Below are positions 7,533-59,722 of a stretch of 64,000 nucleotides of DNA, piece by piece. Origin of the DNA: Candidatus Caldarchaeales archaeon (GTDB lineage: Archaea > Thermoproteota > Nitrososphaeria_A > Caldarchaeales > Wolframiiraptoraceae). Position 1 is the stretch's first letter, and each line of letters starts with the position of its first letter. The DNA lies in the NCBI GenBank assembly GCA_039630055.1, contig JBCNVN010000004.1, forward strand, positions 11,076 to 75,075, in the 5' to 3' direction. A program made the position numbers and the translations under genes. The notes under the pieces are model-generated. The model was not told the DNA's origin. It saw nothing but the letters and a program-made list of their open reading frames with translations, and searched no databases.

Positions 7533-7535
7533 AAT

Positions 7536-8414: not shown

Positions 8415-8516
8415 GAAACTATTCCATAAATACATTAATTTATCTTCTTTAAATAATTCAACATCAGGAAGTTTATAAAATTATAAAATAAAAAATAGAA
8501 GATATGAGAAGATATT

Positions 8517-9962: not shown

Positions 9963-10203
9963 GACCTTTATTAAAGATGATGGGTAATATAAACGTTAAC
10001 CATACATATTGTGATTTTTTCCCCTAGAAAACCCTTTCTTTAAACTCTATCTCTAACATGTCTATAGTTATGGAGTTAGAATTAGTAAGATGCAAAGATA
10101 ATAAATACAGTTTTAGATACTATAAAGAGACCTGAAGATACAGGCTTTATCTTAGAAATAATTATTTTTATATTAATTTCATGGTATTTTGGAAGCTAGA
10201 AGT

Positions 10204-11019
10204 TTACTTTTCGTTTGCGAAAGCTACTATTCTAGCAAAGGCAGATTCGCCATCTTGGAACTTGAATGGGAAGGCTCCTATTATACATCTTCTATTGACT
10301 ACTTTGCTTATCTCTCCACCCAGGTTCTCAGCATGTAGCACCATGTCAGGGAAAAGTTCAAGATGCATCAACTGGTAGTTCTTAGGCCATGGCAGTACCT
10401 CATCTATCTTCTTCCCCCACTTCTTCTCAGCTTCAGCCACCAGGTCAGGCCTAGCTCTCCTGATAACTGTGTTGAGAGGATGGTCTGCAGACATTGCATC
10501 TACACCTATCCATTTTATCTTCATATCTATACACCATCTTGCAAAGCTCTCATCGGGACCTGGATGCTTCACCATATATCTAACTTCATCTGGCTCTGTT
10601 CCACACCAAGCATACTTATGATATCCAGTATGTATTATGAGAATATCTCCCTTTTTGACCTCTATGCCTCCTTCTTTGGCAGCCTTCTTTATGGTCTCCG
10701 ATGTATAGATATCGTAGTCTCCTACGTAAGGAGATATATCTACTATTACTCCTTCTCCTACGAGATAGTCTTCGAGGGGGAGGCTTGCTATATCTTTTCC
10801 ACCCGTTACGAAGTGCATTTGGCTATCGAAGTGAGTCCCAAAGTGTAGTGAGGTCTCTATATATTGTGCGTTTACACCATGTTCTCCAAGCGTCTTTATC
10901 CAGTAGACCTTCATAGGTGGATACCACATGAAGGGTGGTTGCTTCCAGCTCGTCGGTTGAGATAAGTCGTAAATCCTAACCCTGCTCCAATCTACTATCT
11001 TACTCCAATCCAAAACCAT
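10204..11019 (-). CDS. Cyclase-family protein (kynurenine/aryl-formamidase-like metal hydrolase)
   Basis: The motif HFGTHFDSQMHF matches the HxGTHxDxPxH signature of the putative cyclase / arylformamidase family. Confidence 0.75.
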   Translation of the reverse strand: MVLDWSKIVDWSRVRIYDLSQPTSWKQPPFMWYPPMKVYWIKTLGEHGVNAQYIETSLHFGTHFDSQMHFVTGGKDIASLPLEDYLVGEGVIVDISPYVGDYDIYTSETIKKAAKEGGIEVKKGDILIIHTGYHKYAWCGTEPDEVRYMVKHPGPDESFARWCIDMKIKWIGVDAMSADHPLNTVIRRARPDLVAEAEKKWGKKIDEVLPWPKNYQLMHLELFPDMVLHAENLGGEISKVVNRRCIIGAFPFKFQDGESAFARIVAFANEK

Positions 11020-11173: not shown

Positions 11174-11623
11174 ATGAAGTTTGAAGGTAAACTAAATTTG
11201 AGATCTCGGAGAGAGGATGTCTGGAACTTTATATCAGAACCTGCTAAAGTTATTGAATGTGTCCCAGGCGTCGAAGAATACTCTCTCTCTGAAGGTAAGA
11301 GGATAACAGCAAGAGTTAAAGTATCTATCGGATTTATTAAAGGAACTTTCCATACCTCTAGCAGTGTAGTTGAAGAAGACCATAGTAACTATACCGCCAA
11401 GTTGAAATTAGGTGGTTCAGGTGCAGGAAGCGGTTTTGATGCTTTAGTAGACATAAAGCTAAACGATATAGATGGTGGTACTGAGATGGTCTGGAAGGCT
11501 GATGTAAATGTTTCAGGACCACTAGGAAGCTTAGCTAAACCTATGCTAGAAGGTTATGTAAAAAAGCTTGTAGATCAGCTTTTCGACTGTATTAAACAGA
11601 GAGTTGTAAGCTCAAGTATTTAA
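11174..11623 (+). CDS. CoxG-like SRPBCC-fold protein (Mo-hydroxylase accessory subunit G)
   Basis: 149 aa. The sequence RSRREDVWNFISEPAKVIECVPGVEE...GFIKGTF...GPLGSLAKPMLEGYVKKLVDQLFDCIK fits the CoxG family. The gene heads the Mo-hydroxylase operon. Confidence 0.75.
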   Translation: MKFEGKLNLRSRREDVWNFISEPAKVIECVPGVEEYSLSEGKRITARVKVSIGFIKGTFHTSSSVVEEDHSNYTAKLKLGGSGAGSGFDALVDIKLNDIDGGTEMVWKADVNVSGPLGSLAKPMLEGYVKKLVDQLFDCIKQRVVSSSI

Positions 11624-11677
11624 GAAATAGATTTAAGTAAGGCTAGGTTTTTATCACGATGCAGGAGGAGAAAAAAA

Positions 11678-14074
11678 TTGTCCTACAAGTATATTGGAAA
11701 ACCCATTCCCCCTCAAGATGCATTCTATAAAGTTACTGGAACCGCCCAATATACTCTAGATATAGACCTTCCAGGAATGCTTTATTCTAAACTAGTTACC
11801 AGCACCGTACCCCATGCGAAGATAAAGAGGATTGATATAAGTAAGGCTGAAAAAGTTCCAGGAGTAGTCAAAGTCGTAGTAGGAAGAGATTTCCCTTACA
11901 GAGTTGGGATGTATGCTGGAGATAGAGATCTTCTAGCGATTGATAAGGTTAGATGGGTTGGCCACCCAGTAGCAGCCGTTATTGCAGAAGATCTAGAGGC
12001 TGCCGAGAAAGCAATAGATCTTGTTGATGTAGAATATGAAGAGCTGCCAGCAGTATTCGATCCATTAGAAGCTCTTAGACCTGATGCACCTTTAATCCAT
12101 GAGAAGATGGAAGAATATAGACATTCTCCTGCGTTTAGACCCATACCTGGAACGAATATTGCAAATAAGTTCACGTTAGTTAAAGGTGATGTGGAGAAGG
12201 GTTTCAGAGAAGCGGACATAGTAATCGAGGGACAATTTTACATACCTCATGTAAGTCATTCATACATGGAGGTTCAAAACGTTATTGCACATTATCATTT
12301 AGACGGAACCATAGAGATATGGACAAGCTGGCAGAATGTTGCTCCTATCAGGCAGATCATGGCCCTATCTCTAGGAATACCACACAACAAGATTATAGTT
12401 AGGATCCCTTATGTTGGAGGAGGGTTTGGAGGTAAAGCTGGTCTAGGATGGGAAGCTCTAGTGGCCATACTCTCTAAAGAGGCTGGATACAGACCTGTAA
12501 AACTTATCTTATCAAGAAGAGAACAGTTTACATCAGCTGCAGTTAGAGAAGGATTCTACGGATTTGCTAAAGCTGGATTCAAGAAAGATGGCAAGTTTAT
12601 CGCTTACGATGTTAAATTCATATTAGATGCTGGAGCATACGGAGACTACACTGTTAACGTTGGTAGAGCAGTCGGCTACTCTGCTGATGGAAGCTACGAG
12701 ATACCTAACATCAAAGTTGAATCTCTAACTGTTTACACGAATAAGATACCTACAACAGCTCTAAGAGGCTTTGGGTACCCTGAAAGCCACTGGGTTCTCG
12801 AACAGATTATGGATAGAGCAGCACAGAAGATCGGCTTGGATCCTGCAGAGATCAGGAGGATCAATCTAGTCAAGCCAGGTGTATCGGAGACGTGTACAGG
12901 TGAGAGGCTTAGAGAAGATGTTGGAGATCCTCAGAAAGTATTACAAACTTTACTAGAGGGGATAGAATGGGATAAGCCGATCGAAAGTCTGAAAGAACCA
13001 TGGAGGATAAGGTCTAAAGGTTTAGCCCTATTCGTTAAAGGTCCAGCTCAGCCTCCGAATGCTTCCGCCTCGGCCATCTTAAAGTTTAATGAAGATGCTA
13101 GCGTAGACCTATTAGTCTCTACCGGTAACTTTGGGCAGGGAACTGTAACCGCTTTGATCCAGATCGTTGCAGAAGAGTTTGGACTACCATTAGAGAAGGT
13201 GAGGGTAGATTATATTAGAGATACCCATAAATCGGCTTATACTTGGCAGACTGTGGGAAGTAGAGGATTGTTCACAGATGGCATAGCTGTCTTGAGAGCT
13301 GTTGAAGATGCTAAGAAACAGATATTCAAAGTGGCCTCTGAAGTCTTGAGGTGTCCAGAAGAACATCTTGAACTTGTAGATGGAGAAGTAAGAGTAAAGG
13401 GGAGACCATGGGAGAGGATACCTCTAAAAGATATAGTGATGGGCTATACTTATCCTAACGGCAACTCTATTGGAGGTCCGGTAATAGGTAGAGGCGTATT
13501 CATGTCCACCCATACCACATATCTCGATCCTGAAACAGGACAAGGAAATCCGACGATATTCCATACTTTTGGAGGTACAGCAGTAGAGGTTGAAATAAAC
13601 TTGCTCACAGGAGAAGTCGAGGTGTTAAAGGCGGTACAGGTACTCGACCTGGGAAGAGTGATTAACCCACTACTAGTCAAACAACAGGTAAATGGAGGAC
13701 TTCTAATGGGTTTAAGCATAGGATTATATGAGCAGATAAAATTCGATGAGAGAGGATGGGTTATAAATCCCAACTTTACAAATTACTACCTAGTAAGAAT
13801 AAAGGATATTCCTAGAGAAGTTATTAGAAAGTTTATTGAAACACCCCAGCTGGACGGTCCATATGGGGCGAGAGGGATCGGTGAGTTAACAATGATAGGG
13901 GTTGCTCCTGCTATAGCGAATGCAATATTTAGAGCAACAGGTGTAAAAATAGATCGGCTTCCATTAAATCCGGAAAATGTTTGGAAGGCTCTCAATGAGC
14001 AGAGACCCGACCTAGTTAGTGAAGCTATGAATAAGTTTCTAAAATTGGAAGAGAAGGTAGAGGTGAGAATTTGA
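11678..14074 (+). CDS. Xanthine dehydrogenase-family molybdopterin-binding large subunit (aldehyde oxidoreductase/XDH type, copy 1)
   Basis: 798 aa with the motifs YVGGGFGGKAG, TTALRGFGYPE and GPYGARGIGE. It lacks the AYRCSFR loop of true CO dehydrogenases. Confidence 0.9.
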   Translation: MSYKYIGKPIPPQDAFYKVTGTAQYTLDIDLPGMLYSKLVTSTVPHAKIKRIDISKAEKVPGVVKVVVGRDFPYRVGMYAGDRDLLAIDKVRWVGHPVAAVIAEDLEAAEKAIDLVDVEYEELPAVFDPLEALRPDAPLIHEKMEEYRHSPAFRPIPGTNIANKFTLVKGDVEKGFREADIVIEGQFYIPHVSHSYMEVQNVIAHYHLDGTIEIWTSWQNVAPIRQIMALSLGIPHNKIIVRIPYVGGGFGGKAGLGWEALVAILSKEAGYRPVKLILSRREQFTSAAVREGFYGFAKAGFKKDGKFIAYDVKFILDAGAYGDYTVNVGRAVGYSADGSYEIPNIKVESLTVYTNKIPTTALRGFGYPESHWVLEQIMDRAAQKIGLDPAEIRRINLVKPGVSETCTGERLREDVGDPQKVLQTLLEGIEWDKPIESLKEPWRIRSKGLALFVKGPAQPPNASASAILKFNEDASVDLLVSTGNFGQGTVTALIQIVAEEFGLPLEKVRVDYIRDTHKSAYTWQTVGSRGLFTDGIAVLRAVEDAKKQIFKVASEVLRCPEEHLELVDGEVRVKGRPWERIPLKDIVMGYTYPNGNSIGGPVIGRGVFMSTHTTYLDPETGQGNPTIFHTFGGTAVEVEINLLTGEVEVLKAVQVLDLGRVINPLLVKQQVNGGLLMGLSIGLYEQIKFDERGWVINPNFTNYYLVRIKDIPREVIRKFIETPQLDGPYGARGIGELTMIGVAPAIANAIFRATGVKIDRLPLNPENVWKALNEQRPDLVSEAMNKFLKLEEKVEVRI

Positions 14075-14949
14075 GCTTCGGTTCTCCATACTTTACTCTA
14101 CCGGAGTTTACCTATCATAAACCGAAGACTCTCAGTGAGGTCCTTGAGCTATTAGAGAGATATGGTGATGAAGCAAAGATCTTAGCTGGTGGAGTAGGCT
14201 TAATACCGTTTATGAAAGAAAGGCTTATCTCCCCTACACATGTCATAGATATAAAAGAGATATCTGAGTTGAAAAAACTTGAATATAGAAGAGGGGAAGG
14301 ATTAACTATTGGCGCCACTATCACATTCTCAGAGCTAGAATCATATCAGATAGTTAGGGAGAAGTACAAAGCTTTGTATCAAGCGGTAAAAATAGCTTCA
14401 GACAGTATAATAAGAAATAGAGCTACATTGGTAGGAAATATATGCGAGGCTATACCATGGGTTGATGGCCCACCTCCATTAATAGCCTATGATGCTGAAG
14501 TCGAGATTAGAAGCTTGGATAAGGTTAGAAGAGTGTTAGTCGCAGACTTCATTAAAGGCCCAGTAGAGACCGATCTAAAACCTGGAGAGATCGTTACCTC
14601 TATAAAGATACCTGATATACCTGATGATGCAAGAAGTGGATTCATAAAATTTAACACAGGATCGGAGTTCGCTCTAGCAACTATCTCTGCTTATTTGGTG
14701 ATGAAGAAGGAGAAGAGAGATGTGAGGCTAGTCTATGGAGCCATCTCTACTAAACCTATAAGAGCTTTTGAAGCTGAGAAAATCCTTCAAGGCGAAGACG
14801 ACATAAGAAATCTTATACGTTTAGCAGCTGTAAAGGCTTCTGAGGAGGTTGAAGTCGTCTCAGACGTACTGGCTTCTGAAGAATATAGAAGACATCTCGT
14901 CAAAGTACTTACCATGAAGATTTTGATGGATTTGGTGGAGGATGATTAA
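14071..14949 (+). CDS. Mo-hydroxylase FAD-binding medium subunit (CoxM/CutB-like, copy 1)
   Basis: Motifs AKILAGGVGLIPFMKERL and RNRATLVGNI. There is a 4-nt overlap with the large subunit. Confidence 0.9.
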   Translation: MSFGSPYFTLPEFTYHKPKTLSEVLELLERYGDEAKILAGGVGLIPFMKERLISPTHVIDIKEISELKKLEYRRGEGLTIGATITFSELESYQIVREKYKALYQAVKIASDSIIRNRATLVGNICEAIPWVDGPPPLIAYDAEVEIRSLDKVRRVLVADFIKGPVETDLKPGEIVTSIKIPDIPDDARSGFIKFNTGSEFALATISAYLVMKKEKRDVRLVYGAISTKPIRAFEAEKILQGEDDIRNLIRLAAVKASEEVEVVSDVLASEEYRRHLVKVLTMKILMDLVEDD

Positions 14950-14951
14950 GG

Positions 14952-15440
14952 ATGGTTCGAAGAATAAATCTAAAAGTAAATGGATATAGAAGAAGCGTTG
15001 AAGTAAAAGATAATGAACTGCTTCTAGATGTATTAAGAGATAAACTGAAGATAAAGGGTTTGAAGCCAGCTTGCTGGCGTGGTGAATGCGGTCTATGCAC
15101 AGTTATACTGAATGGAAAACTTGTAAAGTCTTGTCTTGTTCTTGCTGTTGAGGTTGATGGTTCTGAGATTGTTACCGTTGAGGGTTTGGCTAGGGATGGT
15201 GAGCTAACACCATTACAGAGAGCATTCATAGAGCATGGAGCACTACAATGCGGATTCTGTACACCAGCGTTCGTCCTCGCCTCCCATCAACTGCTACTCG
15301 AAAATCCCGATCCATCCGATGAAGAGATAAAAGAGAGATTAAGCGGAATACTCTGTAGATGCGGTACATATTATGAGATTATAGAGGCGATTAAGAGTGC
15401 ATCAAAGTATTATCGAAAAGATGTTACTGATCGGTCATAA
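14952..15440 (+). CDS. Mo-hydroxylase [2Fe-2S]-binding small subunit (CoxS/CutC-like, copy 1)
   Basis: The two Fe-S motifs are CWRGECGLCTV and QCGFCTPAF...CRCGTY. Confidence 0.9.
   Translation: MVRRINLKVNGYRRSVEVKDNELLLDVLRDKLKIKGLKPACWRGECGLCTVILNGKLVKSCLVLAVEVDGSEIVTVEGLARDGELTPLQRAFIEHGALQCGFCTPAFVLASHQLLLENPDPSDEEIKERLSGILCRCGTYYEIIEAIKSASKYYRKDVTDRS
15122..15272. repeat. 151-bp segment 100% identical, in inverted orientation, to 27800..27950 (copy A)
   Basis: I aligned the two segments base by base by hand. The reverse complement of 27800-27950 equals 15122-15272 with no mismatch. The flanking bases differ on both sides. Confidence 0.95.
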
Positions 15441-15608
15441 GATCTTATCCAATTTTTCTTTTAATTTCTTCTCTAGACTTGGAGGCGGCTGCCAATTTAC
15501 TTGGACCACTCTTACCCCCTGGTCTCTTAGAGAGAGATAGAATATCTCTAAACCAATGTTTACTGCTTTAATCTCTCCCTTAAATAGATTTAATATTTTC
15601 TCACTCAT
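15435..15608 (-). CDS. Candidate small protein (57 aa) downstream of fdrA-like gene; below the ORF-track cut-off
   Basis: The ATG at 15608 lies 11 nt after the fdrA TAG and is preceded by GGGGGATAAAAG. My translation is MSEKILNLFKGEIKAVNIGLEIFYLSLRDQGVRVVQVNWQPPPSLEKKLKEKLDKIL. The stop overlaps the coxS 3' end by 6 nt. Confidence 0.4.
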   Translation of the reverse strand: MSEKILNLFKGEIKAVNIGLEIFYLSLRDQGVRVVQVNWQPPPSLEKKLKEKLDKIL

Positions 15609-15619
15609 CTTTTATCCCC

Positions 15620-17257
15620 CTATACTTCTATGAACTCTCTGAAAACCCTCTTCAACTTTTCATCAGATATCCTACAATGTTTTGCTATTATAGCCGATGT
15701 AAAAGCCATCAAGGCATTCGTTGGAAAGACCAGTACACCCAAATTCTTCAACTTCTCTTCTTGTACCATTGAGTTCTGAGGATCTGCCTCTGTACCACAC
15801 ACATGTCCTAGAATAACTATCTGCCTAGAGTCTTTCTCAGCTATCTTCCTAGCCTCAATTATAGAGTCCTGCATTGCTCCAACTGGGTCTGGATGAGCAC
15901 CATAACCTAGAACAAAGTCTAAGGTTATTACTGCAACTTCAGGATCTTTCGCCTCTTCTATCAATCTTATCTTTCTTATTGTTGGGTCGATCATCGGATG
16001 GGGTCTACCGGCTGTAAACTCTTCCTCACCAAGATCTACTACTGTGTGCATTCGGCTCTTGTAAGAGTCTTCTAGCTTATACTTTAAGTCTAGAGGAGCA
16101 TTACTGTATACATCTTTACCTATAAGTTCACGATATATTAGAAGCGATTCATACATTAGTGTTCCTCCAGTGTAGAGTGCTCTCAAATATCTCTGATCTG
16201 CTTTCAAATTCTTTGAAAGGTTTCTACAGAGTTTCTTTAACTCGGATAGCTTTAGAGAGATCTTTGATCTAGCTTCTCTGTATTTCTCTGGACTGTTCAT
16301 TTTGACCATGTCTAATACTGCTAATTGGAGGCTTCTAACTGAATGTATCCTTTTAGCTAATTTCTTTGGAGGAATATACTTTCTAGTCCCCAGGAAACAT
16401 AAGACGAATGGTTTCCTAGTCTCTCCCTCAATAAATTGGATGATCTTCTTTAGTACAGAAGAATCTGGAGGCTTTGAAATAACCATTATAGATTTTGTAT
16501 CTTCATCTGCTTCGAGAGCCTTAATACAATCTATAGTCATTATTCCTCCCACTGCCTCCTTTACATCATTTCCACCTACACCGAGACCTTGTGAGATCCC
16601 TAGACCAACCTTATCTAAGAGCACGCTAACTTCTTGAAGTCCGGTTCCGGCTGCTGCAACCACACCGATAGGACCAGTTCTAACTTTGTTAGCGAAGGCT
16701 ATGGCTTTACCGTTTATGATCGATGTTCCCGCTCCAGGTCCTAGAACCAGTAAGCCTCTCTCACTAGCATACTTCTTTAATTCTACTTCATCTTCTATTG
16801 GAACATGGTCACTAAACAGATGAATATGTATATTTTTCTCAAGTATTTTTAGGGCTAATTCTTTAACGTACTGACCAGGTATAGAGATTACTGCTAGATT
16901 GACGTCTGGCATGTCTTCCAATGCGGAATCAAGAGAAAAGTATGTCTTCTCTATAGATGGTTGGAGGCTGATAGAGGGCTTAGTCAACATGTCTTCTATA
17001 TTTGAGATTATATTTGGAAGGAGGTTTTCATCTCTCGCTTTAATGGCTAATACTAGATCGTTAGGTGTGGCCGCTCTCCCCTCATCTGTTAGAAGACCCA
17101 ACCTTTCCAAGATTTCCTTGTTTGTGCTAGTCCCCATTACTAGAGCTGCATCAACCACTCCATCTATCTTCTTAACCTCTTCAGATAACTGCATCAGCTG
17201 CAATGAATCTCTGAAGAAATTCTCCTTAACTACATTCTTTACGACATCCATGATCAA
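15620..17257 (-). CDS. fdrA: FdrA-family protein (succinyl-CoA-synthetase-alpha-like, acyl-CoA synthetase FdrA)
   Basis: 545 aa. The N-terminus reads NFFRDSLQLMQLSEEVKKIDGVVDAALVMGT...NDLVLAIKA. It has CoA-ligase-like segments LLVLGPGAGTSIINGKAIAFAN and VVAAAGTGLQE. Confidence 0.8.
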   Translation of the reverse strand: MIMDVVKNVVKENFFRDSLQLMQLSEEVKKIDGVVDAALVMGTSTNKEILERLGLLTDEGRAATPNDLVLAIKARDENLLPNIISNIEDMLTKPSISLQPSIEKTYFSLDSALEDMPDVNLAVISIPGQYVKELALKILEKNIHIHLFSDHVPIEDEVELKKYASERGLLVLGPGAGTSIINGKAIAFANKVRTGPIGVVAAAGTGLQEVSVLLDKVGLGISQGLGVGGNDVKEAVGGIMTIDCIKALEADEDTKSIMVISKPPDSSVLKKIIQFIEGETRKPFVLCFLGTRKYIPPKKLAKRIHSVRSLQLAVLDMVKMNSPEKYREARSKISLKLSELKKLCRNLSKNLKADQRYLRALYTGGTLMYESLLIYRELIGKDVYSNAPLDLKYKLEDSYKSRMHTVVDLGEEEFTAGRPHPMIDPTIRKIRLIEEAKDPEVAVITLDFVLGYGAHPDPVGAMQDSIIEARKIAEKDSRQIVILGHVCGTEADPQNSMVQEEKLKNLGVLVFPTNALMAFTSAIIAKHCRISDEKLKRVFREFIEV

Positions 17258-17369
17258 TCGTCTTAGATTGGATTACGCTATGGAATAAATATTTCTAAGA
17301 CATAGTCTTAATTCAGATCCCATTTACATGAGATATAAAGTCTTTTAACTCTAGAAGAATGATGAGGGC

Positions 17370-17663
17370 CTATCCTCCACCTATGATCTCTACCAAGTCT
17401 ATTACGTCAATCGATATACTGTCATTCTCTCTGAGCGGTGTCTCAACCCCCTTCAAAAGCTTGATACTATGCCCATTAACCAAGACCATTAAATTATCCC
17501 TCAACCTACCTTCATGATACAATGTCTTCGTAAAATCTTCTCCCAAGATTCTTGAAATATCTTCTATCAGCTCTCTAACATTTTTGGGGGTCTTGTCCAG
17601 TATGATCTCATCCCGGTTAGCAATCTCTTTTAATCTAGAGTATAATCTAACTCTAATACCCAT
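17370..17663 (-). CDS. MoaD/ThiS-family beta-grasp (ubiquitin-like) protein ending in Gly-Gly-Gly
   Basis: From the internal ATG at 17663 the protein reads MGIRVRLYSRLKEIANRDEIILDKTPKNVRELIEDI...LMVLVNGHSIKLLKGVETPLRENDSISIDVIDLVEIIGGG-stop. The track ORF extends to 17756, but that would overlap the upstream gene by 46 nt. Confidence 0.65.
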   Translation of the reverse strand: MGIRVRLYSRLKEIANRDEIILDKTPKNVRELIEDISRILGEDFTKTLYHEGRLRDNLMVLVNGHSIKLLKGVETPLRENDSISIDVIDLVEIIGGG

Positions 17664-17710
17664 CTCATATTTTTGATATAGATGACCAGCATAAATATTT
17701 TCTATCGCTA

Positions 17711-18640
17711 CTATGAAAGACCTGTAATTAGGTTTATCAGCTTCTCGGTAAGACATGTATTCTTTACATAGTCTAGGAAGGATGATAAGCCGGTCAATAC
17801 TCCTAAAGTTATATCTAAACCAGAAGTATGTCCTCTTCTCGCAAGATTGAGGATCGAGTCTATAAAAACTCCTTCATCTCTTGAAGCTATAGAATACAGT
17901 AATTGATGTAAGTGCTCATCATAAAAACCATCTTCTGCATATTTTAAAAACATTGCACTCTCCCAACTAGTATGGCTAAAGAGAAATTCATCATCTAGCA
18001 TTATCTTGGGAATTTGGAATTCTTCACCTATTATATTTAAGAAGCTGATGAATCCGATCAAGAAATCATCGCCTGAGGGTGTGAATCCACCACCTACACC
18101 GATGAGATCCCTATAATTTTCAACTTTCCTTAATGGTTCCAAGTCTCCCCTCGAAAATGGATAGACTACTTCTATCAAGAATCTTCTCAACTGCTCTATC
18201 TCTAAGATAGGTATAATGCTAGAAGGTATCGAGTAAAGGATGATTATAGTGTTCAATCCTTTAATAAACATTTTCTCGTATATCTTCTCTCGGAGATCGT
18301 CTAGATGATTGATATTTCCAATCGGTAGAGATGAGTATCGCTGAGCATTCCTTAAATCGATCTCGATTCTTCCAATCCTAATTTTACTCTCTTCAATATC
18401 AATACGATCTCGTAGTTCGATTTGTAGGTAGAATGGTGTTTCGAGAGTTTTTTGAGAAATGTTTATGGTGTATGGAGACCGGACATTCTTCTGTGTTATT
18501 ATTATCATATCTCTACATACTTTAACGTATATCGTATTAGCGAATATATGATGGATTGAAAACTCACCATAATAATTATCTAAAATCTCTATAGCCTTCT
18601 CTCCAATACTTGATGCATATAATTTATATCCCATACTCAT
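17711..18640 (-). CDS. DUF2877-like protein (YlbF/AllH-like)
   Basis: The motifs DLIGVGGGFTPSGDDFLIGF and RRGHTSGLDITLG match my recollection of the DUF2877 signature. There is a 17-nt overlap with the upstream DUF1116 gene. Confidence 0.6.
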   Translation of the reverse strand: MSMGYKLYASSIGEKAIEILDNYYGEFSIHHIFANTIYVKVCRDMIIITQKNVRSPYTINISQKTLETPFYLQIELRDRIDIEESKIRIGRIEIDLRNAQRYSSLPIGNINHLDDLREKIYEKMFIKGLNTIIILYSIPSSIIPILEIEQLRRFLIEVVYPFSRGDLEPLRKVENYRDLIGVGGGFTPSGDDFLIGFISFLNIIGEEFQIPKIMLDDEFLFSHTSWESAMFLKYAEDGFYDEHLHQLLYSIASRDEGVFIDSILNLARRGHTSGLDITLGVLTGLSSFLDYVKNTCLTEKLINLITGLS

Positions 18641-19892
18641 CTACATATGCTTCGAACGCGCTCTTGAATACTTCGAATGGAAAGGAAACTATGCCCGCGC
18701 CTATCTGGCCTACCCCTGCCTCCTTATGAGCTATACCTGTATTGATTGTAGGGACTATCCCAGTCTTTAAAATCTTTCTGATATCTATTCCAGTAGGGGT
18801 TCCCTGAAAGTTCAGGTAAGGTATCTGGAAATACTTATGCTTAGTATAAGTAATCTCATACATCTTATTTGTTATCTCGATAGCCATCTGGACGCTTCCA
18901 CCTACCCATGAGACGATCGCTGGAGCTGCTGCCATAGCAAATCCTCCGAACCCCGCGGTCTCGGTGATCGAGCTGTCCCCTAAGTCAGGGTTAGCATCTG
19001 ACTCTGAGTATCCTGGAAACCATACTCCCTTAGGGATTGGAGCAGGAGAGGTGAACCATCTACTACCTAACCCACTAACCCATATCCCAGTCTCGGTTCC
19101 ATTTCTAGACATAACCGTTACTATTGTGCTATACTTGATGTTGTGAGCGGTTAAAGTCATCGCCTTCGCAGCCGCCATCCCCAAGTTCAAAGTTGTAAAA
19201 TTGTTTCCAGCTAGGAAACTGTATACTTCTCTTATCGTCTGTATGTTGAATCCTGTGTTGATCATGTATGGGGTCATCTCTTTTAAGAGGAGGGCCGTGG
19301 CCGCGTTGTACCTATTATGGCAGTCATCACCCATCTGTAATGCTTGCGTTATGATGCTCTTCAAAGATACTCCACCTTTATCTTTTACTATCTCTCTTAT
19401 CGTTGCTTGGAGGAGGGGTGCAACAGTCGACTCAATCCATCTAAGCCTATCTATTACATCACTACTATAAGCTCCATATCTTAGAACTTTCCCTATCCCT
19501 TCATTAAAATTGGTATATGTTCTATTCCCATATTTTTTATCATATACTTCGTATATAGGCATTCTTGGAGATATGATCCCTGACATTGGTCCGACAGCAT
19601 AGTGAATATGAGTAGGTTCTAGAGTGACTTGACCAGATTTAACAAGCTTCTCAGCTTCTTCGGGGGTATCCGCCCATCCCTCATATATTATAGCACCTAT
19701 TACCGCACCCTTCATAGGTCCGCTGGCCTTCTCCCATTTTAGAGGTGGACCAGCATGGAGAAGTAGATAGTCTTTCATCCCAGGTATCTTTTCTTTTGCT
19801 GTACCTACATCAACCCATACGGGATCAGACTCCATCATTCTTTCAACAGCTTCTCTATTAGCCTTCTCAATCTCATCTTTTATCATAGACAT
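18624..19892 (-). CDS. DUF1116-family protein (YlbE/AllG-like)
   Basis: The segment LLLHAGPPLKWEKASGPMKGAVIGAIIYEGWADTPEEAEKL closely parallels the E. coli YlbE N-terminal region as I recall it. Confidence 0.75.
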   Translation of the reverse strand: MSMIKDEIEKANREAVERMMESDPVWVDVGTAKEKIPGMKDYLLLHAGPPLKWEKASGPMKGAVIGAIIYEGWADTPEEAEKLVKSGQVTLEPTHIHYAVGPMSGIISPRMPIYEVYDKKYGNRTYTNFNEGIGKVLRYGAYSSDVIDRLRWIESTVAPLLQATIREIVKDKGGVSLKSIITQALQMGDDCHNRYNAATALLLKEMTPYMINTGFNIQTIREVYSFLAGNNFTTLNLGMAAAKAMTLTAHNIKYSTIVTVMSRNGTETGIWVSGLGSRWFTSPAPIPKGVWFPGYSESDANPDLGDSSITETAGFGGFAMAAAPAIVSWVGGSVQMAIEITNKMYEITYTKHKYFQIPYLNFQGTPTGIDIRKILKTGIVPTINTGIAHKEAGVGQIGAGIVSFPFEVFKSAFEAYVDEYGI

Positions 19893-20057: not shown

Positions 20058-20987
20058 GTGATGGTGGGTGCTGTTATCATGAAGAAGAGAGGCGAGACTT
20101 CTAGACTTCTACGTGAAGAACTGGAGAGGAAGGGGATAATAGTTACACCCGGAGTATTCAATCCTTTATCTGCGATGCTTGCAGAGAAGATGGGGTTTAG
20201 AGCAGTATATATCTCGGGGGCAGCTATAACAGCTTCGCTCGGCCTACCGGATATCGGCTTGATAACTATGGATGAGATGGTTAGAATGGTCAAGTATATT
20301 ACAGATGCTGTTGATATACCTGTTATAGTTGATGCAGATACTGGATATGGTGAGGCTTTAAACGTGGTTAGAGCTGTTGGAGAATTTGAGAAGGTAGGGG
20401 CGGCAGCTATACAGATAGAAGATCAGATTCTTCCAAAGAAGTGTGGACATCTCTCTGGTAAAAAGCTTATAGAGCCGATAGATATGGCTAAGAAGATTAG
20501 GGCTGCAGTAGATGCAAGAAAGAATCCAGATCTCGTAATTATTGCTAGAACAGATGCTAGAGGTGTGAACGGTTTTGAAGATGCTGTAGAGAGGGCGAAG
20601 ATTTATCTAGAAGCTGGAGCGGACGTCATCTTTCCAGAGGCATTAGAGTCTGAAGAAGAGTTTATAGAGTTCGCTGAGAGGATAGACAGCCCCCTTCTAG
20701 CTAACATGACCGAGTTCGGCAAGTCTCCAATAATATCCTATAAGAGATTGGAAGAGATAGGATACAAGTTCGTCATCTATCCTGTAACTTTGCTGAGGCT
20801 TGCCATGGCCGCTATCAGAGAAGGTTTAACAACCTTGATAGAAGATGGATCCCAAGAGAAGATGATCTCGAAGATGTTCACTCGGAAAGAACTGTATGAA
20901 CTAATCCACTATGATGAATATGAAGATTTTGATAAAAGAGTATCTGAAGAAGTTGAGGCAAAGGTTGGTAGAGTATGGATAAGATAA
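20058..20987 (+). CDS. prpB: Methylisocitrate lyase / PEP-mutase superfamily protein
   Basis: Motifs VTPGVFNPLSAMLAEKMGFRAVYISGAA, VDADTGYGEALN and IEDQILPKKCGHLSGK. The true start may be the ATG at 20079 (MKKRGETS). Confidence 0.85.
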   Translation: MMVGAVIMKKRGETSRLLREELERKGIIVTPGVFNPLSAMLAEKMGFRAVYISGAAITASLGLPDIGLITMDEMVRMVKYITDAVDIPVIVDADTGYGEALNVVRAVGEFEKVGAAAIQIEDQILPKKCGHLSGKKLIEPIDMAKKIRAAVDARKNPDLVIIARTDARGVNGFEDAVERAKIYLEAGADVIFPEALESEEEFIEFAERIDSPLLANMTEFGKSPIISYKRLEEIGYKFVIYPVTLLRLAMAAIREGLTTLIEDGSQEKMISKMFTRKELYELIHYDEYEDFDKRVSEEVEAKVGRVWIR

Positions 20988-22336
20988 CTCGAATCTTAGC
21001 AGCATATGCTTATGATATAGATTACGGGAAGCTAGCCTCGGAGACGATCCACGAGGTTAAGAGGAGGATAATAGATTCTCTCGGAGTGGCTTTTGCTGCT
21101 TACTATTCTGAGCCAGTCATCAAGAGCCGTAGACTTGCATCACTATACTCTACAGAAAGAGGTGGACGTATAATAGGCACTAGATATAGGGTTTCACCCG
21201 ACTGGGCTTCATTCATAGATGGGATAATGATAAGATACCATGATTACAATGATACGTATCTATCTAAAGAGCCTCTACATCCTAGTGATATGATCGCTGC
21301 CGCATTCGGTCTAGGAGATACATTAAATTCTTCAGGAATGGACATAATTACAAGCATAGCTATCGGCTACGAGATAGCTGTAACCCTTTGTGATGCTGGA
21401 AGCTTAAGGAGGAGAGGATGGGATCATGTAAACTTTCTAGGAATAGGTAGTAACATTCTCTCATGTAAACTTTTAGGATTAGACCTAGAAAAGATACAAC
21501 ATTCTCTCTCCATATATGTCGTCCCCCACGCTTCGATGAGGCAGACTAGGGTTGGAGAACTCAGCATGTGGAAAGGGTCTGCCGCGGCGAACTCGACTAG
21601 AAACGCTGTATTCAGCGCTTTAATTGCAAGAGAAGGATTTACAGGTCCCTTCAAACCATTTGAGGGAGAGATGGGCTTCATAAAACAGCTCCTACAAGGG
21701 GATTTCGATATGAAGGCATTCACATCATTAGAGGATAAGAAGACTCCCCTGAGGATCCTCGATACTTACATAAAGAAGTATCCGGTAGAATATCATGCTC
21801 AAACAGCTGTAGATGCAGCTTTGAAGCTGAGAGAGCAGGTTCACGTAAAAGATATAGAGAAGATCTTGATAGAGACCTTTCAGGCAGCTTACGATATTAT
21901 TGGTCCTAAAGATCCTGAGAAATGGGATCCTCACACTAAAGAGACCGCAGACCATTCTTTAATGTGGATAGTGGCCGCTACTCTAGCATGGGGAAACATT
22001 ACGATCGAAAAGTATCAAGATATAAGAAATCCCCAAGTACTCTCTTTGATGAAGCTTATGGAGGTCAAGGTTGACCCAGAGATAGATGAGAAGTATCCAA
22101 GATCCTTTCCAAATAGGATAACGATAAAAACCAGAGATGGGAGGAGATTTACAGAAGAGGTAGAGTATGCTAGAGGACATCCAAAAAATCCTATGTCAGA
22201 TGAAGAAGTTGAGAAAAAATTCAATGAGCTAACAGAGAATATTATTCCAAGAGATCAGAGGAGGAGATTGTTGGAAAAAATCTGGAGACTGGAAAATTAC
22301 AATATAGAAGAGATCATTGATGATACAGTAATATAG
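20975..22336 (+). CDS. prpD: MmgE/PrpD-family 2-methylcitrate dehydratase
   Basis: 453 aa. It overlaps prpB by 13 nt. It has typical PrpD-family segments (RIIDSLGVAFAA..., HPSDMIAAAF, ADHSLMW). Confidence 0.8.
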   Translation: MDKITRILAAYAYDIDYGKLASETIHEVKRRIIDSLGVAFAAYYSEPVIKSRRLASLYSTERGGRIIGTRYRVSPDWASFIDGIMIRYHDYNDTYLSKEPLHPSDMIAAAFGLGDTLNSSGMDIITSIAIGYEIAVTLCDAGSLRRRGWDHVNFLGIGSNILSCKLLGLDLEKIQHSLSIYVVPHASMRQTRVGELSMWKGSAAANSTRNAVFSALIAREGFTGPFKPFEGEMGFIKQLLQGDFDMKAFTSLEDKKTPLRILDTYIKKYPVEYHAQTAVDAALKLREQVHVKDIEKILIETFQAAYDIIGPKDPEKWDPHTKETADHSLMWIVAATLAWGNITIEKYQDIRNPQVLSLMKLMEVKVDPEIDEKYPRSFPNRITIKTRDGRRFTEEVEYARGHPKNPMSDEEVEKKFNELTENIIPRDQRRRLLEKIWRLENYNIEEIIDDTVI

Positions 22337-22693: not shown

Positions 22694-24277
22694 ATGGGTG
22701 AGAAAGCTCATAGAACTATTGAAGAGTTGATTAATGAACTAAACGATATGAGGAGGAAGGCTTTAATCGGTGGAGGACTGGAAGCTATAGAGAAACAGCA
22801 TCAAGCTGGAAAATTAACGGCCAGAGAGAGGATTAACATATTGTTGGACAAAGATAGCTTCATAGAATTAGATGCCTTCATGATGCATCGAGCCACCGAA
22901 TTCGGGATGGATAAGAGAAAAGTTTTAGGAGATGGAATAGTTACTGGTCTCGGAAGAATAGATGGTAGATTGGTCGCTGTCTTCGCTCAAGATGCTACTT
23001 TTATGGGAGGCTCAATAGGAGAAGTACATGCCAACAAGATCTCTAGAACACTCGACCGAGCAATGGAGCTAGGGATACCAATAATAGCTTTAAACGATTC
23101 TGGGGGTGCACGGATTCAAGAAGGTGTTACATCACTTCATGCCATAGGAGAATATTTTGCAAGAAATGTTAGAGCGTCAGGAGTAATCCCTCAAATTACT
23201 GTAATGATGGGGCCGTGTGCAGGTGGTGCTGTATATTCGCCAGCACTCGGAGACTTCATAATAATGGTAGAAAAGACTAGCTACATGTTTATCACGGGGC
23301 CACGAGTGGTAAAAGCCGTAATGGGTGAAGATGTTTCTTTCGAGGAGCTAGGTGGACCATACGTTCATGCACAAACTTCTGGGGTGGCTGATTTCATCGT
23401 ACCAAACGATGTTGAAGCCTTGAATCTTGTGAGGAGACTGATATCCTATCTTCCATCGAATAGTCTTGAAGAGCCGCCGATAATAGACGTCGGAGACCCT
23501 GCAGATAGAATAAATGAAGAATTAAATTATATCGTACCCTCCGATCCGAAGAAAAGCTATGACGTGAAAGAATTGATAAATCTGGTCTTTGATAAGGATA
23601 GTTTCCTAGAGGTTAAGAGAGATTTCGCACCGAATGTTGTAGTAGGTTTTGCAAGGCTTGCCGGAATATCTGTAGGAGTTGTAGCGAACCAGCCAGCTTC
23701 ACTGGCAGGCGTCCTAGATATAGATTCTTCTGATAAGATCGCTCGATTCGTAAGATTCTGCGACTGCTTTAATATCCCACTTATAACCTTCGTCGATGTT
23801 CCTGGATACCTACCTGGAACTAGACAAGAACATGGAGGAATAATCAGACATGGAGCCAAAGTAATATATGCTTATGTCGAGGCCACGGTTCCGAAGATCT
23901 CAGTCATAGTTAGGAAAGCATATGGTGGAGCCTATATAGCGATGTGCAGTAAAAGTTTGGGGGCTGACATGGTCTTCGCCTATCCCACTGCTGAGATAGC
24001 GGTCATGGGACCCGAGGGGGCAGTAGAAATAATATATAGAAAGGAGATCGATTCTGCTAAACCAGAGGAGAGGGAGGATATTATATCTAGGCTGATTAGA
24101 GAGTATAGATTAAAGTTTGCAAATCCATACATAGCTGCGAGCTATGGATACATCAACATGGTAATCGAGCCTAAGGAGACTAGACCGATGCTTGCCAAAG
24201 CTTTAAAGATGCTTATGAATGGTAAGAGAACACTTGTATCTAGGCTTCCGAAGAAACATGGAAACATGCCATTATGA
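22694..24277 (+). CDS. mmdA: Methylmalonyl-CoA carboxyltransferase (decarboxylase alpha subunit / acyl-CoA carboxylase beta-type)
   Basis: 527 aa with GKLTARERINILLD, FAQDATFMGGSIG, DSGGARIQEG and FVDVPGYLPG. Confidence 0.9.
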   Translation: MGEKAHRTIEELINELNDMRRKALIGGGLEAIEKQHQAGKLTARERINILLDKDSFIELDAFMMHRATEFGMDKRKVLGDGIVTGLGRIDGRLVAVFAQDATFMGGSIGEVHANKISRTLDRAMELGIPIIALNDSGGARIQEGVTSLHAIGEYFARNVRASGVIPQITVMMGPCAGGAVYSPALGDFIIMVEKTSYMFITGPRVVKAVMGEDVSFEELGGPYVHAQTSGVADFIVPNDVEALNLVRRLISYLPSNSLEEPPIIDVGDPADRINEELNYIVPSDPKKSYDVKELINLVFDKDSFLEVKRDFAPNVVVGFARLAGISVGVVANQPASLAGVLDIDSSDKIARFVRFCDCFNIPLITFVDVPGYLPGTRQEHGGIIRHGAKVIYAYVEATVPKISVIVRKAYGGAYIAMCSKSLGADMVFAYPTAEIAVMGPEGAVEIIYRKEIDSAKPEEREDIISRLIREYRLKFANPYIAASYGYINMVIEPKETRPMLAKALKMLMNGKRTLVSRLPKKHGNMPL

Positions 24278-25375
24278 TCCGAGAAACTGTGGTAGAAGAG
24301 ATAGTACGACGGCTCCAGCTATGACAGATGTTATCTGACCACCTGTATTTGTTGCTATCGTATGCATCAGTATCCAGTTATCTGGATCTTCTTGACGAGC
24401 GATTAAATGAGCTGTCCTCGCGGCCATGGGGAATGCTGAGATACCTGTAGCTCCAATCAAAGGGTTTATCTTTCCTCCAGTTAGATAGTATGCTAGCTTT
24501 GCTGCTAGTAGCCCGAAAGATATGTCCGTTATGAAGGCTATGACTCCGAGCCCGAAGACCATAAGGGTTGAGAGATTTATGAATTTCTCTGCAAGCATGG
24601 TTCCACCAATACTCAAACCTAGTAATAGAGTCACAATATTCGATAGTTCATTCTGGGCAGATTTTGACAGCCTCTCCACTACACCACACTCTTTTAAGAA
24701 GTTTCCAAACATCAAGGCCCCTATCAAAGGTAACCCTTTCGGAGCTATCAAACCTATTACGATCGTTACAATTATTGGGAAGATGACTTTTAATGTTTTA
24801 GGGTATCTTCCCGGCTTATAATACATTCGGGCTCGTCGCTCTCTTCTACTTAAAAGTAGCTTTGAGATTGGTACGAGGAGCAGCGGGGCGATAGAGATAT
24901 ACATGTAGGCTGAGACAGCTATAGGTCCAAGTAAATCCTTTGCATATTTAGAGGCTACATATATTGCTGTCGGCCCATCCATGGCGCCTATTACGCCTAT
25001 ACTGGCGGCTCTCTCAGGTGTGAACCCTAGGGCCAAAGCTAAGGTGATTGTTAGGGGTATCCCTATCTGTGCAGGGATGGTCATAAGAAGAACCCATGGC
25101 ATCTCAAAAAGGGGGCCGAAGTCTATCATGGCTCCAATACCGATGAAGATGAGGATTGGGAATATCTCTGTAAGTATACCGTAATCGTAAAGATATCTGA
25201 TGAATCCTCCGACCTCCATCAACTCTCCGTATGGTATGTTTACTAAGACTGCTCCAAACCCTATCGGGATCAAGAGTAGAGGTTCATACCCTTTCTTAAC
25301 CGCTAAGTAGATGAGTACAAACCCGACAGCAATCATAATTATATTGCCTGCATGTCCCAGTAAAAACTCCATCAT
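24272..25375 (-). CDS. mmdB: Na+-translocating decarboxylase beta subunit (OadB/MmdB/GcdB family)
   Basis: 367-aa polytopic membrane protein with IGAMDGPTAIY and GISAFPMAAR-type segments. Its 3' end overlaps mmdA by 6 nt in convergent orientation. Confidence 0.85.
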   Translation of the reverse strand: MMEFLLGHAGNIIMIAVGFVLIYLAVKKGYEPLLLIPIGFGAVLVNIPYGELMEVGGFIRYLYDYGILTEIFPILIFIGIGAMIDFGPLFEMPWVLLMTIPAQIGIPLTITLALALGFTPERAASIGVIGAMDGPTAIYVASKYAKDLLGPIAVSAYMYISIAPLLLVPISKLLLSRRERRARMYYKPGRYPKTLKVIFPIIVTIVIGLIAPKGLPLIGALMFGNFLKECGVVERLSKSAQNELSNIVTLLLGLSIGGTMLAEKFINLSTLMVFGLGVIAFITDISFGLLAAKLAYYLTGGKINPLIGATGISAFPMAARTAHLIARQEDPDNWILMHTIATNTGGQITSVIAGAVVLSLLPQFLGS

Positions 25376-25384
25376 TAATCCACC

Positions 25385-25792
25385 CTACTCAATCTCTATT
25401 AAACTATCGCCTGCATTAACAGAAGCTCCTTCTTGAACATATATCCGCTTCACTCTACCAGATGTAGGAGAATATATCATATTCTCCATCTTCATACTCT
25501 CCAATACTATTACAGGATCTCCAGCTTTAACCGGATCACCTTCCCTACATTTTATCGATACTATAGTTCCGGGGATCGGTGCCCTCACCAGACCTCGTGC
25601 TTTTACTGTCTCAACCCTTGCCTCTGGAATAGGAGTTGGAGATATTCTCTTTTCCTCTCGTTGGGTTGGAATAACTGTAGGTGGAGGTGTCATAGCTACT
25701 TCTTCTACGCCAACCTCCTCAACCTCAACTTCGAATACTTTACCTTCTACTGTCACTCGGAACCTTCTCTTCAATTCAATGCACCTCTCCAT
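25385..25792 (-). CDS. mmdC: Biotin carboxyl carrier subunit (decarboxylase gamma subunit)
   Basis: A Pro/Thr-rich linker is followed by a biotinyl domain with the VLESMKMEN biotinylation motif. Confidence 0.8.
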   Translation of the reverse strand: MERCIELKRRFRVTVEGKVFEVEVEEVGVEEVAMTPPPTVIPTQREEKRISPTPIPEARVETVKARGLVRAPIPGTIVSIKCREGDPVKAGDPVIVLESMKMENMIYSPTSGRVKRIYVQEGASVNAGDSLIEIE

Positions 25793-26108
25793 CCCGTAAA
25801 GAATTTAGGATACTTGAAATCTTCCATATTGATGGAGGAGTTGGTGAGCCCTCTTTTATATGAACAGTTTTTGTAGTCTGAGATAAAGATGCGATTACAG
25901 CGCTAATTCCTGCGATTACTTCAAGGCTTTCTCCGACGATCTTCTTTACTTCGATTTCAGGTTTTTCTTTGATTTCTACCGGTCTATGATATGTGGATCG
26001 TCGAAGTAGATAGATCATTATTAGTAGGATAAGGACCCCTCCTGATACGTATAGCAGCCAGTTCAAGGTAAAGACTAGACTTAAATCGATATAATTAGTT
26101 GAGACCAC
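25776..26108 (-). CDS. Small membrane subunit of the decarboxylase (OadG/MmdD-like), tentative
   Basis: GTG start and a single N-terminal TM helix (LLYVSGGVLILLIMIYLL). It overlaps the carrier gene by 17 nt. The assignment rests on position and topology. Confidence 0.4.
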   Translation of the reverse strand: MVSTNYIDLSLVFTLNWLLYVSGGVLILLIMIYLLRRSTYHRPVEIKEKPEIEVKKIVGESLEVIAGISAVIASLSQTTKTVHIKEGSPTPPSIWKISSILNSLRDGEVH

Positions 26109-26309
26109 GTAATGAATGAAAAAGACGTTCTATTTTAGTATTGCATATATTGGGATTCAATCTTCTATGTACTCATTAGAGGCGAACTTTAGCAGTCCAC
26201 TTCTATTCAAGGTTCCAACATATTCAAGAGATAATAACATAGTATATGGAAGAATAAGATTCATATATGAATTTTACATTAATACATTAATAACAATAAA
26301 TGATCTTAA

Positions 26310-28985: not shown

Positions 28986-28991
28986 CTTTTC

Positions 28992-31310: not shown

Positions 31311-31425
31311 TTATCATCACCCTCCTAATAATTTTTTACATCTTCAAATCTCTAAACCTCAATATATCTCTTCACTCTCCATATTTTATCGAAAAATAAT
31401 TATAGGGTAGGATAAGATTGAGGTT

Positions 31426-34819: not shown

Positions 34820-34836
34820 TTTCTTCCTTCCCAACG

Positions 34837-46101: not shown

Positions 46102-46173
46102 CCTAGAATATATCTCTTGGAGAGATATCTGAAAGTGGATAAAAATATAAACCACCACTTTCTTGTATCATCC

Positions 46174-59677: not shown

Positions 59678-59722
59678 AAGTTTATCAAGAGGTCTCTTGG
59701 CTGGATTTCGTATACATAAAAG

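Follow-up and report, generated by a model that had tools for sequence, protein, structure and literature searches.

The closest described relative of the system considered here is AllFGH of Escherichia coli (fdrA-ylbE-ylbF), an oxamic transcarbamylase that interconverts oxalurate plus Pi and oxamate plus carbamoyl phosphate (Kim & Kim 2024, PMC11326118). Archaeal AllFGH is already in the literature: allFGH(K) accompanied by bmpA-nupABC has been reported in metagenome-assembled genomes (MAGs) of non-ammonia-oxidising Nitrososphaerales and of comammox organisms (PMC12625717). Archaeal genes for the sulfur carrier MoaD typically have as neighbors molybdenum cofactor (Moco) genes and genes for pterin enzymes, AOR for example (PMC2948915), and two papers describe archaeal ubiquitin-like proteins (Ubls) as functionally flexible and redundant (PMC11323500; PMC2948915). 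We analyzed a 64,000-nt stretch of the genome of a Candidatus Caldarchaeales archaeon (GCA_039630055.1, contig JBCNVN010000004.1, positions 11,076 to 75,075 of the forward strand; hereafter, the window), in which homologues of all three E. coli proteins are encoded next to a Ubl and an open reading frame (ORF) of 57 aa. Our preferred explanation, which we regard as reasonably probable, is an AllFGH-type enzyme with a split FdrA, together with an accessory sulfur-carrier Ubl that belongs to a larger gene supercluster.

Five consecutive minus-strand ORFs at 15435-19892 were confirmed, encoding AllG, AllH, the Ubl, FdrA and the 57-aa product (Table 1). Profile searches bear out the assignments to DUF1116, DUF2877 and FdrA made in an earlier, sequence-only reading of this DNA; the PF06545 (AllG) and PF11392 (AllH) scores both exceed their gathering cutoffs. 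The main FdrA ORF, which may start at TTG 17257 or, six bases further in, at ATG 17251, aligns with positions 2-503 of the 555-position PRK06091 model (425 bits), contains CoA_binding and Ligase_CoA domains, and matches the E. coli FdrA structure (PDB 3DMY, 8.2e-68). The last 17 nt of AllG overlap the start of AllH, and a PDB search with AllH gave no relative. AllG orthologues that are 64-91% identical occur in at least 30 archaeal loci, the closest of which (87-91% identity) are from MAGs of Candidatus Geocrenenecus, a relative of the archaeon that carries the window and a member of the family Wolframiiraptoraceae within the Caldarchaeales (PMC9246946). A hidden Markov model (HMM) built from orthologues locates AllH after AllG in archaeal loci. 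Across Geocrenenecus species, the same-strand string AllG-AllH-Ubl-FdrA-57 aa is kept while AllH identity falls to as low as 37%.

The window triad and E. coli AllFGH share three protein families encoded adjacently on one strand, including an FdrA with succinyl-CoA-synthetase-alpha-like CoA-binding and CoA-ligase domains, and the F, G and H proteins are of similar size (555, 419 and 271 aa in E. coli; 545 + 57, 422 and 309 aa here). The two differ in that FdrA is divided between two ORFs and that the gene order is G-H-(Ubl)-F rather than F-G-H-K, a reordering the sequence-only reading had recognized, as it had the E. coli triad's identity as an oxamate carbamoyltransferase (PMC11326118). Its remark that carbamate kinase is missing also agrees with our Pfam scans, which covered the 62 principal (non-shadow) window ORFs of at least 110 aa: no member of the AA_kinase family, carbamate kinase included, was detected, nor were the allantoinase, M20 or ureidoglycolate dehydrogenase families. 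Thus, allK and allB/C/D/E are absent from these ORFs, though they may be encoded elsewhere in the genome, and the neighbors are instead a cyclase-family hydrolase and CoxLMS hydroxylases. Because the genomic surroundings differ in these ways, the substrate of the window triad is uncertain; gene context indicates that it may be an N-acylurea related to oxalurate. The previously reported archaeal system (PMC12625717) resembles the window in placing the triad alongside a Bmp-type ABC transporter, but its contigs carry allK, and that paper discusses neither a Ubl nor a divided FdrA nor any link to cyclase and CoxLMS genes.

The 57-aa ORF begins 11 nt past the FdrA stop codon in a different frame, with a Shine-Dalgarno-like G-rich stretch upstream of its ATG. 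It matches the end of the FdrA model that the main ORF lacks (PRK06091 positions 503-553 of 555, E 1.8e-5, 23.5 bits, NCBIfam). The 545-aa ORF alone, at 425 bits, falls short of the PRK06091 cutoff of 433 bits, whereas a rough sum with the 57-aa ORF reaches ~448. Its best PDB match is likewise E. coli FdrA (3DMY, residues 430-472 of a 480-residue construct), with which it shares the pattern VNIGL..F...L......V....W.P.....KL...L. More than 7,400 proteins match a profile of this module. Those with the best scores are ~56 aa long, NCBI gives several of them the name "fdrA domain protein", and homologues so named score at E ~1e-21. These annotated proteins, from Clostridia, Caldiserica, Thermoprotei and others, agree with it in module, size and place after fdrA, with no substantive difference. 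Judged by its sequence, then, the 57-aa ORF is the separately encoded and conserved C-terminal ~50 residues of FdrA, already named in public annotation, and no extra subunit. The sequence-only reading had counted two components beyond the E. coli set; the Ubl is indeed additional, while the small ORF, although real and conserved as proposed, is a common free FdrA tail.

Across the loci compared (given L numbers below), the module occurs in three states. As a free-standing gene, it follows fdrA directly in almost all of the archaeal loci and in Lutispora-type Firmicutes loci; it is joined to the C-terminus of FdrA in E. coli and in the Anaerolineae loci L023, L024 and L032; and it is joined to the N-terminus of AllG in L028 (Chloroflexia), L088 (Hodarchaeaceae) and L089 (an unclassified bacterium). 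Because fusion alternates between FdrA and AllG, a Rosetta-stone pattern, the module is predicted to sit at the FdrA-AllG junction. We found no published description of this three-state distribution, and the searched PDB copy holds no AllFGH complex structure, so the pattern offers a useful clue to where FdrA and AllG meet. The enzyme would be assembled from four polypeptides, with the 57-aa product translationally coupled to FdrA and integral to that junction. The stop-codon ends of the 57-aa ORF and the convergent CoxS gene overlap by 6 nt (15435-15440), which leaves no intergenic space for a terminator.

The fifth protein is a Ubl of 97 aa, read from ATG 17663, whose C-terminus is IIGGG followed directly by the stop codon; a 128-aa reading from 17756 was rejected, as it overlaps AllH and is without orthologue support. 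The earlier description of it as a beta-grasp protein with a glycine C-terminus holds: beyond the ThiS match, AlphaFold2 models it with confidence as a beta-grasp (mean pLDDT 88.6) whose tail is flexible, and the top Foldseek matches are SAMP1, Ta0895, Sulfolobus Urm1 and MoaD (probability 1.00). The nearest solved structure by sequence is Ta0895 (2G1E, 2.9e-10). The Ubl passes the MoaD-family cutoff of TIGR01687 (53.7 bits against 49.5), whereas it was rejected as a SAMP1 equivalog (34.9 bits against 60) and as Urm1-like (26.1 bits against 70).

Alignment places this protein in a MoaD/SAMP1-like subfamily of its own, whose tail is extended. Among Geocrenenecus orthologues, identity is 55-81% and the ending ...D-V-I-D-[LI]-[VL]-E-I-[IV]-GGG is shared. 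A word-indexed search with the Ubl alone gave just 8 close relatives, and the subfamily emerged when 1.84 billion representatives were searched exhaustively with a profile, whereby 515 ThiS-like proteins scored at E<=1e-3 and a subset aligned over the full length, tail included. Canonical archaeal MoaDs recovered by the same search end in ...IFPPVSGG, and their alignment stops at position 85, the tail of the subfamily exceeding theirs by 5 residues. The three terminal glycines are invariant in the alignment, and an exact GGG end is found in 118 of 120 members. In the databases searched, the subfamily occurs only in Thermoproteota-type archaea (Bathyarchaeia, Conexivisphaerales, Caldarchaeales, other Nitrososphaeria and one Korarchaeota MAG), and it is sparse, with ~169 proteins at E<=1e-8 among 5.8 billion and 23 loci in a narrow pattern scan of 185,579 species genomes. 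The window Ubl shares with other archaeal MoaD/SAMP1-type Ubls (TIGR01687; Ta0895, 2G1E; Haloferax volcanii SAMP1, 3PO0) a beta-grasp fold with an unextended glycine C-terminus and, in keeping with the usual setting of archaeal MoaD genes (PMC2948915), has pterin-cofactor enzymes as neighbors. It differs from them in the tail motif D-x-[IV]-[DE]-[IL]-x-E-x-[VI]-GGG, with its invariant third glycine, and in being linked to XDH-family hydroxylases and biotin genes rather than to AOR. No MoaE, ThiF/E1 or JAMM family was detected among the scanned window ORFs, MoaE and ThiF were absent from 10 Pfam-annotated Ubl contexts, and no MoaE, E1 or JAMM gene recurs near the Ubl. We found no published description of the GGG-tailed subfamily or of its attachment to the supercluster. 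In a single-cell genome (JGI 0000106-J15; L007/L045), the Ubl is cut at a contig end, a second copy is fused in frame to the end of a PrpB-like ORF, and FdrA is inverted relative to other Geocrenenecus loci, which looks like a chimeric single-cell assembly rather than biology.

The sequence-only reading had raised the question of whether the Ubl and the small ORF accompany the triad in other genomes. Among 40 AllG-centred loci with flanks of up to 10 kb, FdrA was present in 28, the small module in 27, a cyclase-family hydrolase in 24, AllH in 22 by BLAST (23 by HMM) and CoxL in 19, although many of the loci are related by descent and the counts are not independent events. The Ubl was found in 7, every one of them from Geocrenenecus, and with the subfamily HMM (E<0.01) the other 33 gave no ThiS-like ORF within ~10 kb. 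The Ubl can therefore not be regarded as a general companion of the triad. In the common archaeal layout, FdrA and the module are divergent from AllG-AllH, and the flanks hold CoxS-M-L, CoxG and the cyclase. Bacterial clusters of the form FdrA-(module)-AllG are followed directly by a cyclase-family gene in Lutispora-type loci (L025-L027, L033) and in Anaerolineae (L023, L024, L032); in the Chloroflexota the cyclase is doubled and CoxM/S/L/G come next. AllH was undetected within 10 kb of these clusters, even by HMM. Universality thus holds for the partnership with the cyclase but not for the triad.

A complementary set of 38 Ubl-centred loci places the Ubl most often beside other genes than the triad. 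A cyclase gene was present in 26, CoxLMS in 25, biotin genes (BioY, BPL, BCCP, OAD-beta or carboxyltransferase) in the flank of 24, CoxG in 23, the triad in 14 and Bmp in 12, so that CoxG and CoxLMS-type genes rank among the most frequent neighbors of the subfamily. The immediate neighbor changes with lineage. In Bathyarchaeia it is a cyclase or BioY gene 4-160 nt away, in Caldarchaeum CoxS at a distance of 7-21 nt, and in Conexivisphaerales BPL or BioY, with BPL in the string BPL-Ubl-243aa-105aa-BCCP-OADbeta; the Ubl adjoins AllH in two lineages only, co-directionally in Geocrenenecus and convergently, with a 3-nt gap, in a Nitrososphaeria MAG (L076). In Bathyarchaeia and Caldarchaeum, the Ubl and triad share the supercluster. 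The complete set is present in the Bathyarchaeia locus L086, arranged as AllH<AllG< >FdrA>module <CoxSML <CoxSML<CoxG >cyclase <Ubl, where 9 kb separate the Ubl from the triad; on contig CAWJIE010000005.1, a BioY-BPL-Ubl block lies ~22 kb from the triad/Cox block. A genome scan with a Bathyarchaeia FdrA fragment gave 4 loci only, and several Bathyarchaeia flanks end right at the second CoxS. Since the Ubl stays within the supercluster through at least 7 distinct local arrangements, its function appears to be connected with the cluster rather than its position being pure hitch-hiking. The Ubl and triad are members of one recurring archaeal supercluster, with no specific coupling between them.

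Local signals fit a separate transcription of the Ubl. The gaps on its two sides, 47 nt between AllH and the Ubl and 112 nt between the Ubl and FdrA, each contain the TATA-like 10-mer AAATATTTAT at the same distance from the next start codon, and the window holds 3 copies against 0.61 expected by chance, the third at 35190-35199. A TTTTTAATA box precedes AllG at a similar distance. With these two AAATATTTAT copies as putative promoters, AllG-AllH, the Ubl, and FdrA with its module could each form a transcription unit that has a short leader or none.

These findings can be combined into a proposed pathway. Besides the AllFGH-type enzyme, the recurring blocks of the supercluster comprise a Bmp-type ABC importer, a cyclase-family ring/amide hydrolase, CoxG with two CoxLMS hydroxylases, and a biotin-dependent Na+-decarboxylase with BPL and BioY. 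An imported N-heterocycle would be hydroxylated and its ring hydrolysed to an N-acylurea, from which the AllFGH homologue would release carbamoyl phosphate by phosphorolysis. An N-acylurea is a probable substrate, because from archaea to Chloroflexota and Clostridia AllFGH is conserved alongside a hydroxylase and a ring/amide hydrolase rather than alongside allantoin enzymes. That recurrent pairing with a cyclase and an XDH-type hydroxylase suggests that this transcarbamylase class uses substrates beyond oxalurate. As a hypothesis, malonurate derived from a barbiturate-type intermediate is an attractive candidate, being the one-carbon homologue of oxalurate; we found no literature that links FdrA to oxidative pyrimidine or barbiturate breakdown. 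The position of the Ubl between allH and fdrA would be a lineage-specific placement, probably under its own promoter. As pterin-dependent hydroxylases are its most frequent partners and archaeal MoaD offers a precedent, the most likely job of the Ubl is the supply or handling of sulfur for the pterin cofactor of the neighboring CoxLMS hydroxylases. FdrA probably uses it neither as a substrate nor as a cofactor, although it may have a role in a pathway shared with the triad, as both are recurrent members of one supercluster in several archaeal classes. The comparison thus corrects an over-reading on two points: the small ORF is a part of FdrA, and the association of the Ubl with the triad is not a general one.

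Several observations weigh against this explanation. The Ubl abuts AllH in two arrangements, in Geocrenenecus and in L076, and lies within 10 kb of the triad in at least 5 lineages. The biotin-gene string that contains the Ubl in Conexivisphaerales has no molybdenum hydroxylase within 10 kb, a context that a purely Moco-related role leaves unexplained. No MoaE or E1 gene adjoins the Ubl in the contexts examined, its extended tail is unlike that of MoaE-docking MoaDs, and the Moco genes of the window (moaC, moaB and moeA, 58.7-61.6 kb) are 40 kb away. The missing carbamate kinase and allantoin genes, which leave the triad substrate uncertain, and the shared descent of many compared loci count on the same side.

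Of the alternatives, the one that fares best, though we consider it unlikely, is that the Ubl is a general MoaD/SAMP protein (serving molybdopterin synthase, tRNA thiolation or protein modification) placed here by inherited synteny only. The TIGR01687 score, the nearest structures (SAMP1, Ta0895 and MoaD), the flexibility and redundancy ascribed to archaeal Ubls in the papers cited above (PMC11323500; PMC2948915) and four Ubl contexts without any supercluster gene (L053, L054, L055, L083) are all consistent with such a role. However, the sparsity of the subfamily argues against a housekeeping MoaD, which should be far commoner in Bathyarchaeia and Nitrososphaeria; moreover, the Ubl keeps to the supercluster as its local arrangement changes, and its tail differs from that of the canonical FPPVSGG MoaDs that the exhaustive search also contains.

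Slightly less credible, and best taken as speculation, is that the GGG Ubl is not a generic MoaD but a dedicated sulfur or acyl carrier of an unrecognised energy-conserving N-heterocycle pathway in Thermoproteota-type archaea. In such a pyrimidine- or barbiturate-like pathway, CoxLMS and the cyclase-family hydrolase would yield an N-acylurea, for example malonurate, the AllFGH homologue would convert it to carbamoyl phosphate, and the biotin-dependent Na+ pump would decarboxylate the carbon skeleton, with the Ubl acting directly in the chemistry or in the maturation of the enzymes. The sharply defined, supercluster-tied GGG subfamily is a tractable target for studying accessory functions of archaeal Ubls.

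We find it doubtful that the Ubl serves the biotin block (BPL, BioY, the decarboxylase and a 246-aa protein) or handles sulfur from thio-pyrimidines together with a TudS-like desulfurase. The co-directional BPL-Ubl-243aa-105aa-BCCP-OADbeta string recurs in Conexivisphaerales and in L080, the Ubl adjoins BioY with gaps of 4-50 nt in many Bathyarchaeia loci, and a PF27735-like gene is present in 26 loci. Against this, many Ubl loci have no biotin gene in the flank (L056, L058, L059, L068-L070, L073), and the window is without a TudS-like gene. In addition, we know of no biochemistry that ties a MoaD-type carrier to biotin ligase or BioY.

Quite improbable, in our assessment, is the proposal of the sequence-only reading that the Ubl works with FdrA, AllG and AllH, its C-terminal glycine being activated as an acyl-phosphate, adenylate or thiocarboxylate by the succinyl-CoA-synthetase-like FdrA or the Ubl acting as a carrier that replaces the free ureide. 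Such a partnership could account for the five-gene string that persists in Geocrenenecus despite AllH divergence, for the second arrangement in L076 with the Ubl 3 nt from AllH, for the shared supercluster in Bathyarchaeia and Caldarchaeum, and for the lack of a nearby E1 gene in the window Pfam scans. Yet 33 of the 40 AllG loci have no ThiS-like ORF within ~10 kb by HMM, and 24 of the 38 Ubl loci have no triad in the flank; nothing indicates that FdrA activates or uses the Ubl, and members of its subfamily are found beside cyclase, CoxG and CoxLMS or beside BioY and BPL genes where the triad is missing. E. coli AllFGH is active as three proteins with no Ubl (PMC11326118), the 112-nt gap between the Ubl and FdrA has its own TATA-like box, and where the blocks are separated on one contig (CAWJIE010000005.1), the Ubl stays with BioY and BPL rather than with the triad. 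Finally, the different frames 11 nt apart might suggest that a frameshift or a misassembly produced the FdrA split, or that the small ORF is spurious; this reading can be dismissed, since the identical split recurs in nearly all archaeal and Lutispora loci, thousands of free-standing ~56-aa proteins exist in both isolates and MAGs, and the small ORF has its own Shine-Dalgarno-like stretch.

Table 1. Features of the window and AllG fusions at compared loci; window coordinates count from the first letter of the 64,000-nt stretch, and functional names are predictions.
Feature	Position	Strand	Remarks
AllG (DUF1116/YlbE-like)	18624-19892	-	422 aa; PF06545 6.6e-85; PDB 3CLQ 5.8e-120
AllH (DUF2877/YlbF-like)	17711-18640	-	309 aa; PF11392 2e-20, residues 179-285
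Ubl (MoaD/SAMP1-like beta-grasp, GGG-tail subfamily)	17370-17663	-	97 aa; ThiS PF02597 2.6e-9
FdrA/AllF main body (succinyl-CoA-synthetase-alpha-like)	15620-17257	-	545 aa; PRK06091 4.1e-127
57-aa ORF, free-standing FdrA C-terminal module	15435-15608	-	PRK06091 positions 503-553/555
TATA-like 10-mer AAATATTTAT, putative promoter	17691-17700	-	AllH-Ubl gap; ends 27 nt before Ubl ATG 17663
TATA-like 10-mer AAATATTTAT, putative promoter	17285-17294	-	Ubl-FdrA gap; ends 27 nt before FdrA TTG 17257
AllG with N-terminal FdrA module	L028 9503-11218; L088 5989-7551; L089 8471-9877		Hodarchaeaceae (L088) is an Asgard MAG
Bmp/PnrA-type ABC uptake system (ATPase, two permeases, binding protein)	4908-9962		Pfam; recurs in supercluster
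Cyclase-family (PF04199) metal-dependent hydrolase	10204-11019	-	4.4e-35; kynurenine-formamidase-like PDB matches
CoxG and CoxL/M/S-type molybdenum hydroxylase	11174-15440	+	Pfam; convergent on 57-aa ORF
PrpB and PrpD-family genes	20058-22336	+	between triad and Na+-decarboxylase genes
Biotin-dependent Na+-decarboxylase (carboxyltransferase, OAD-beta, biotin carrier, 110-aa ORF), BPL and BioY	22694-27637		Pfam
Second CoxL/M/S operon, headed by conserved 246-aa protein	27654-32166	-	Pfam
moaC, moaB/mog-like, moeA	58705-61651	+	Moco biosynthesis; ~40 kb from Ubl

Among the remaining genes of the window, XdhA models are the nearest match of the large subunit in both hydroxylases, at scores under the equivalog cutoffs, and no moaD or moaE lies beside moaC, moaB and moeA. 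PrpB is identified as methylisocitrate lyase (TIGR02317, 410 bits against a cutoff of 354), while the PrpD-family gene is assigned from its Pfam domains and scores under the NCBIfam equivalog cutoffs. The placement of these two genes, which is seen in Geocrenenecus only, suggests a link to propionyl-CoA metabolism.

The 246-aa protein (31426-32166, minus strand) gave no Pfam, NCBIfam or PDB match, and a single-sequence AlphaFold2 model was unusable (mean pLDDT 39.5). It belongs to a ~245-aa family found in 24 of the loci compared (for example, L051 7356-8087, L086 5846-6565 and L031 12046-12891) with many invariant residues, an HELGG motif among them. Members follow the Ubl in Conexivisphaerales and follow AllH in Benthortus L031 and Bathyarchaeia L086.

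In close relatives (L001-L003, L005, L029), a gene for a TudS-like putative 2-thiouracil desulfurase (PF27735; L002 19799-20707, for example) lies between the cyclase and Bmp genes, and it recurs in Bathyarchaeia superclusters. No TudS-like homologue was found anywhere in the window, where the corresponding site (9962-10204) is a 241-nt gap.

Farther along the window, flanked on both sides by ORFs with no family match (43624-44301 and 45568-46158), an actin-family, crenactin-like gene is located at 44294-45571, within 43624-46158 on the minus strand. The gene for a replication factor C (RFC) small subunit (34837-37149, minus strand) is interrupted by an intein (Intein_splicing match, residues 101-525); next to it are genes for an RFC large-subunit-like protein (33494-34834) and for Cdc6/Orc1 (32285-33448).

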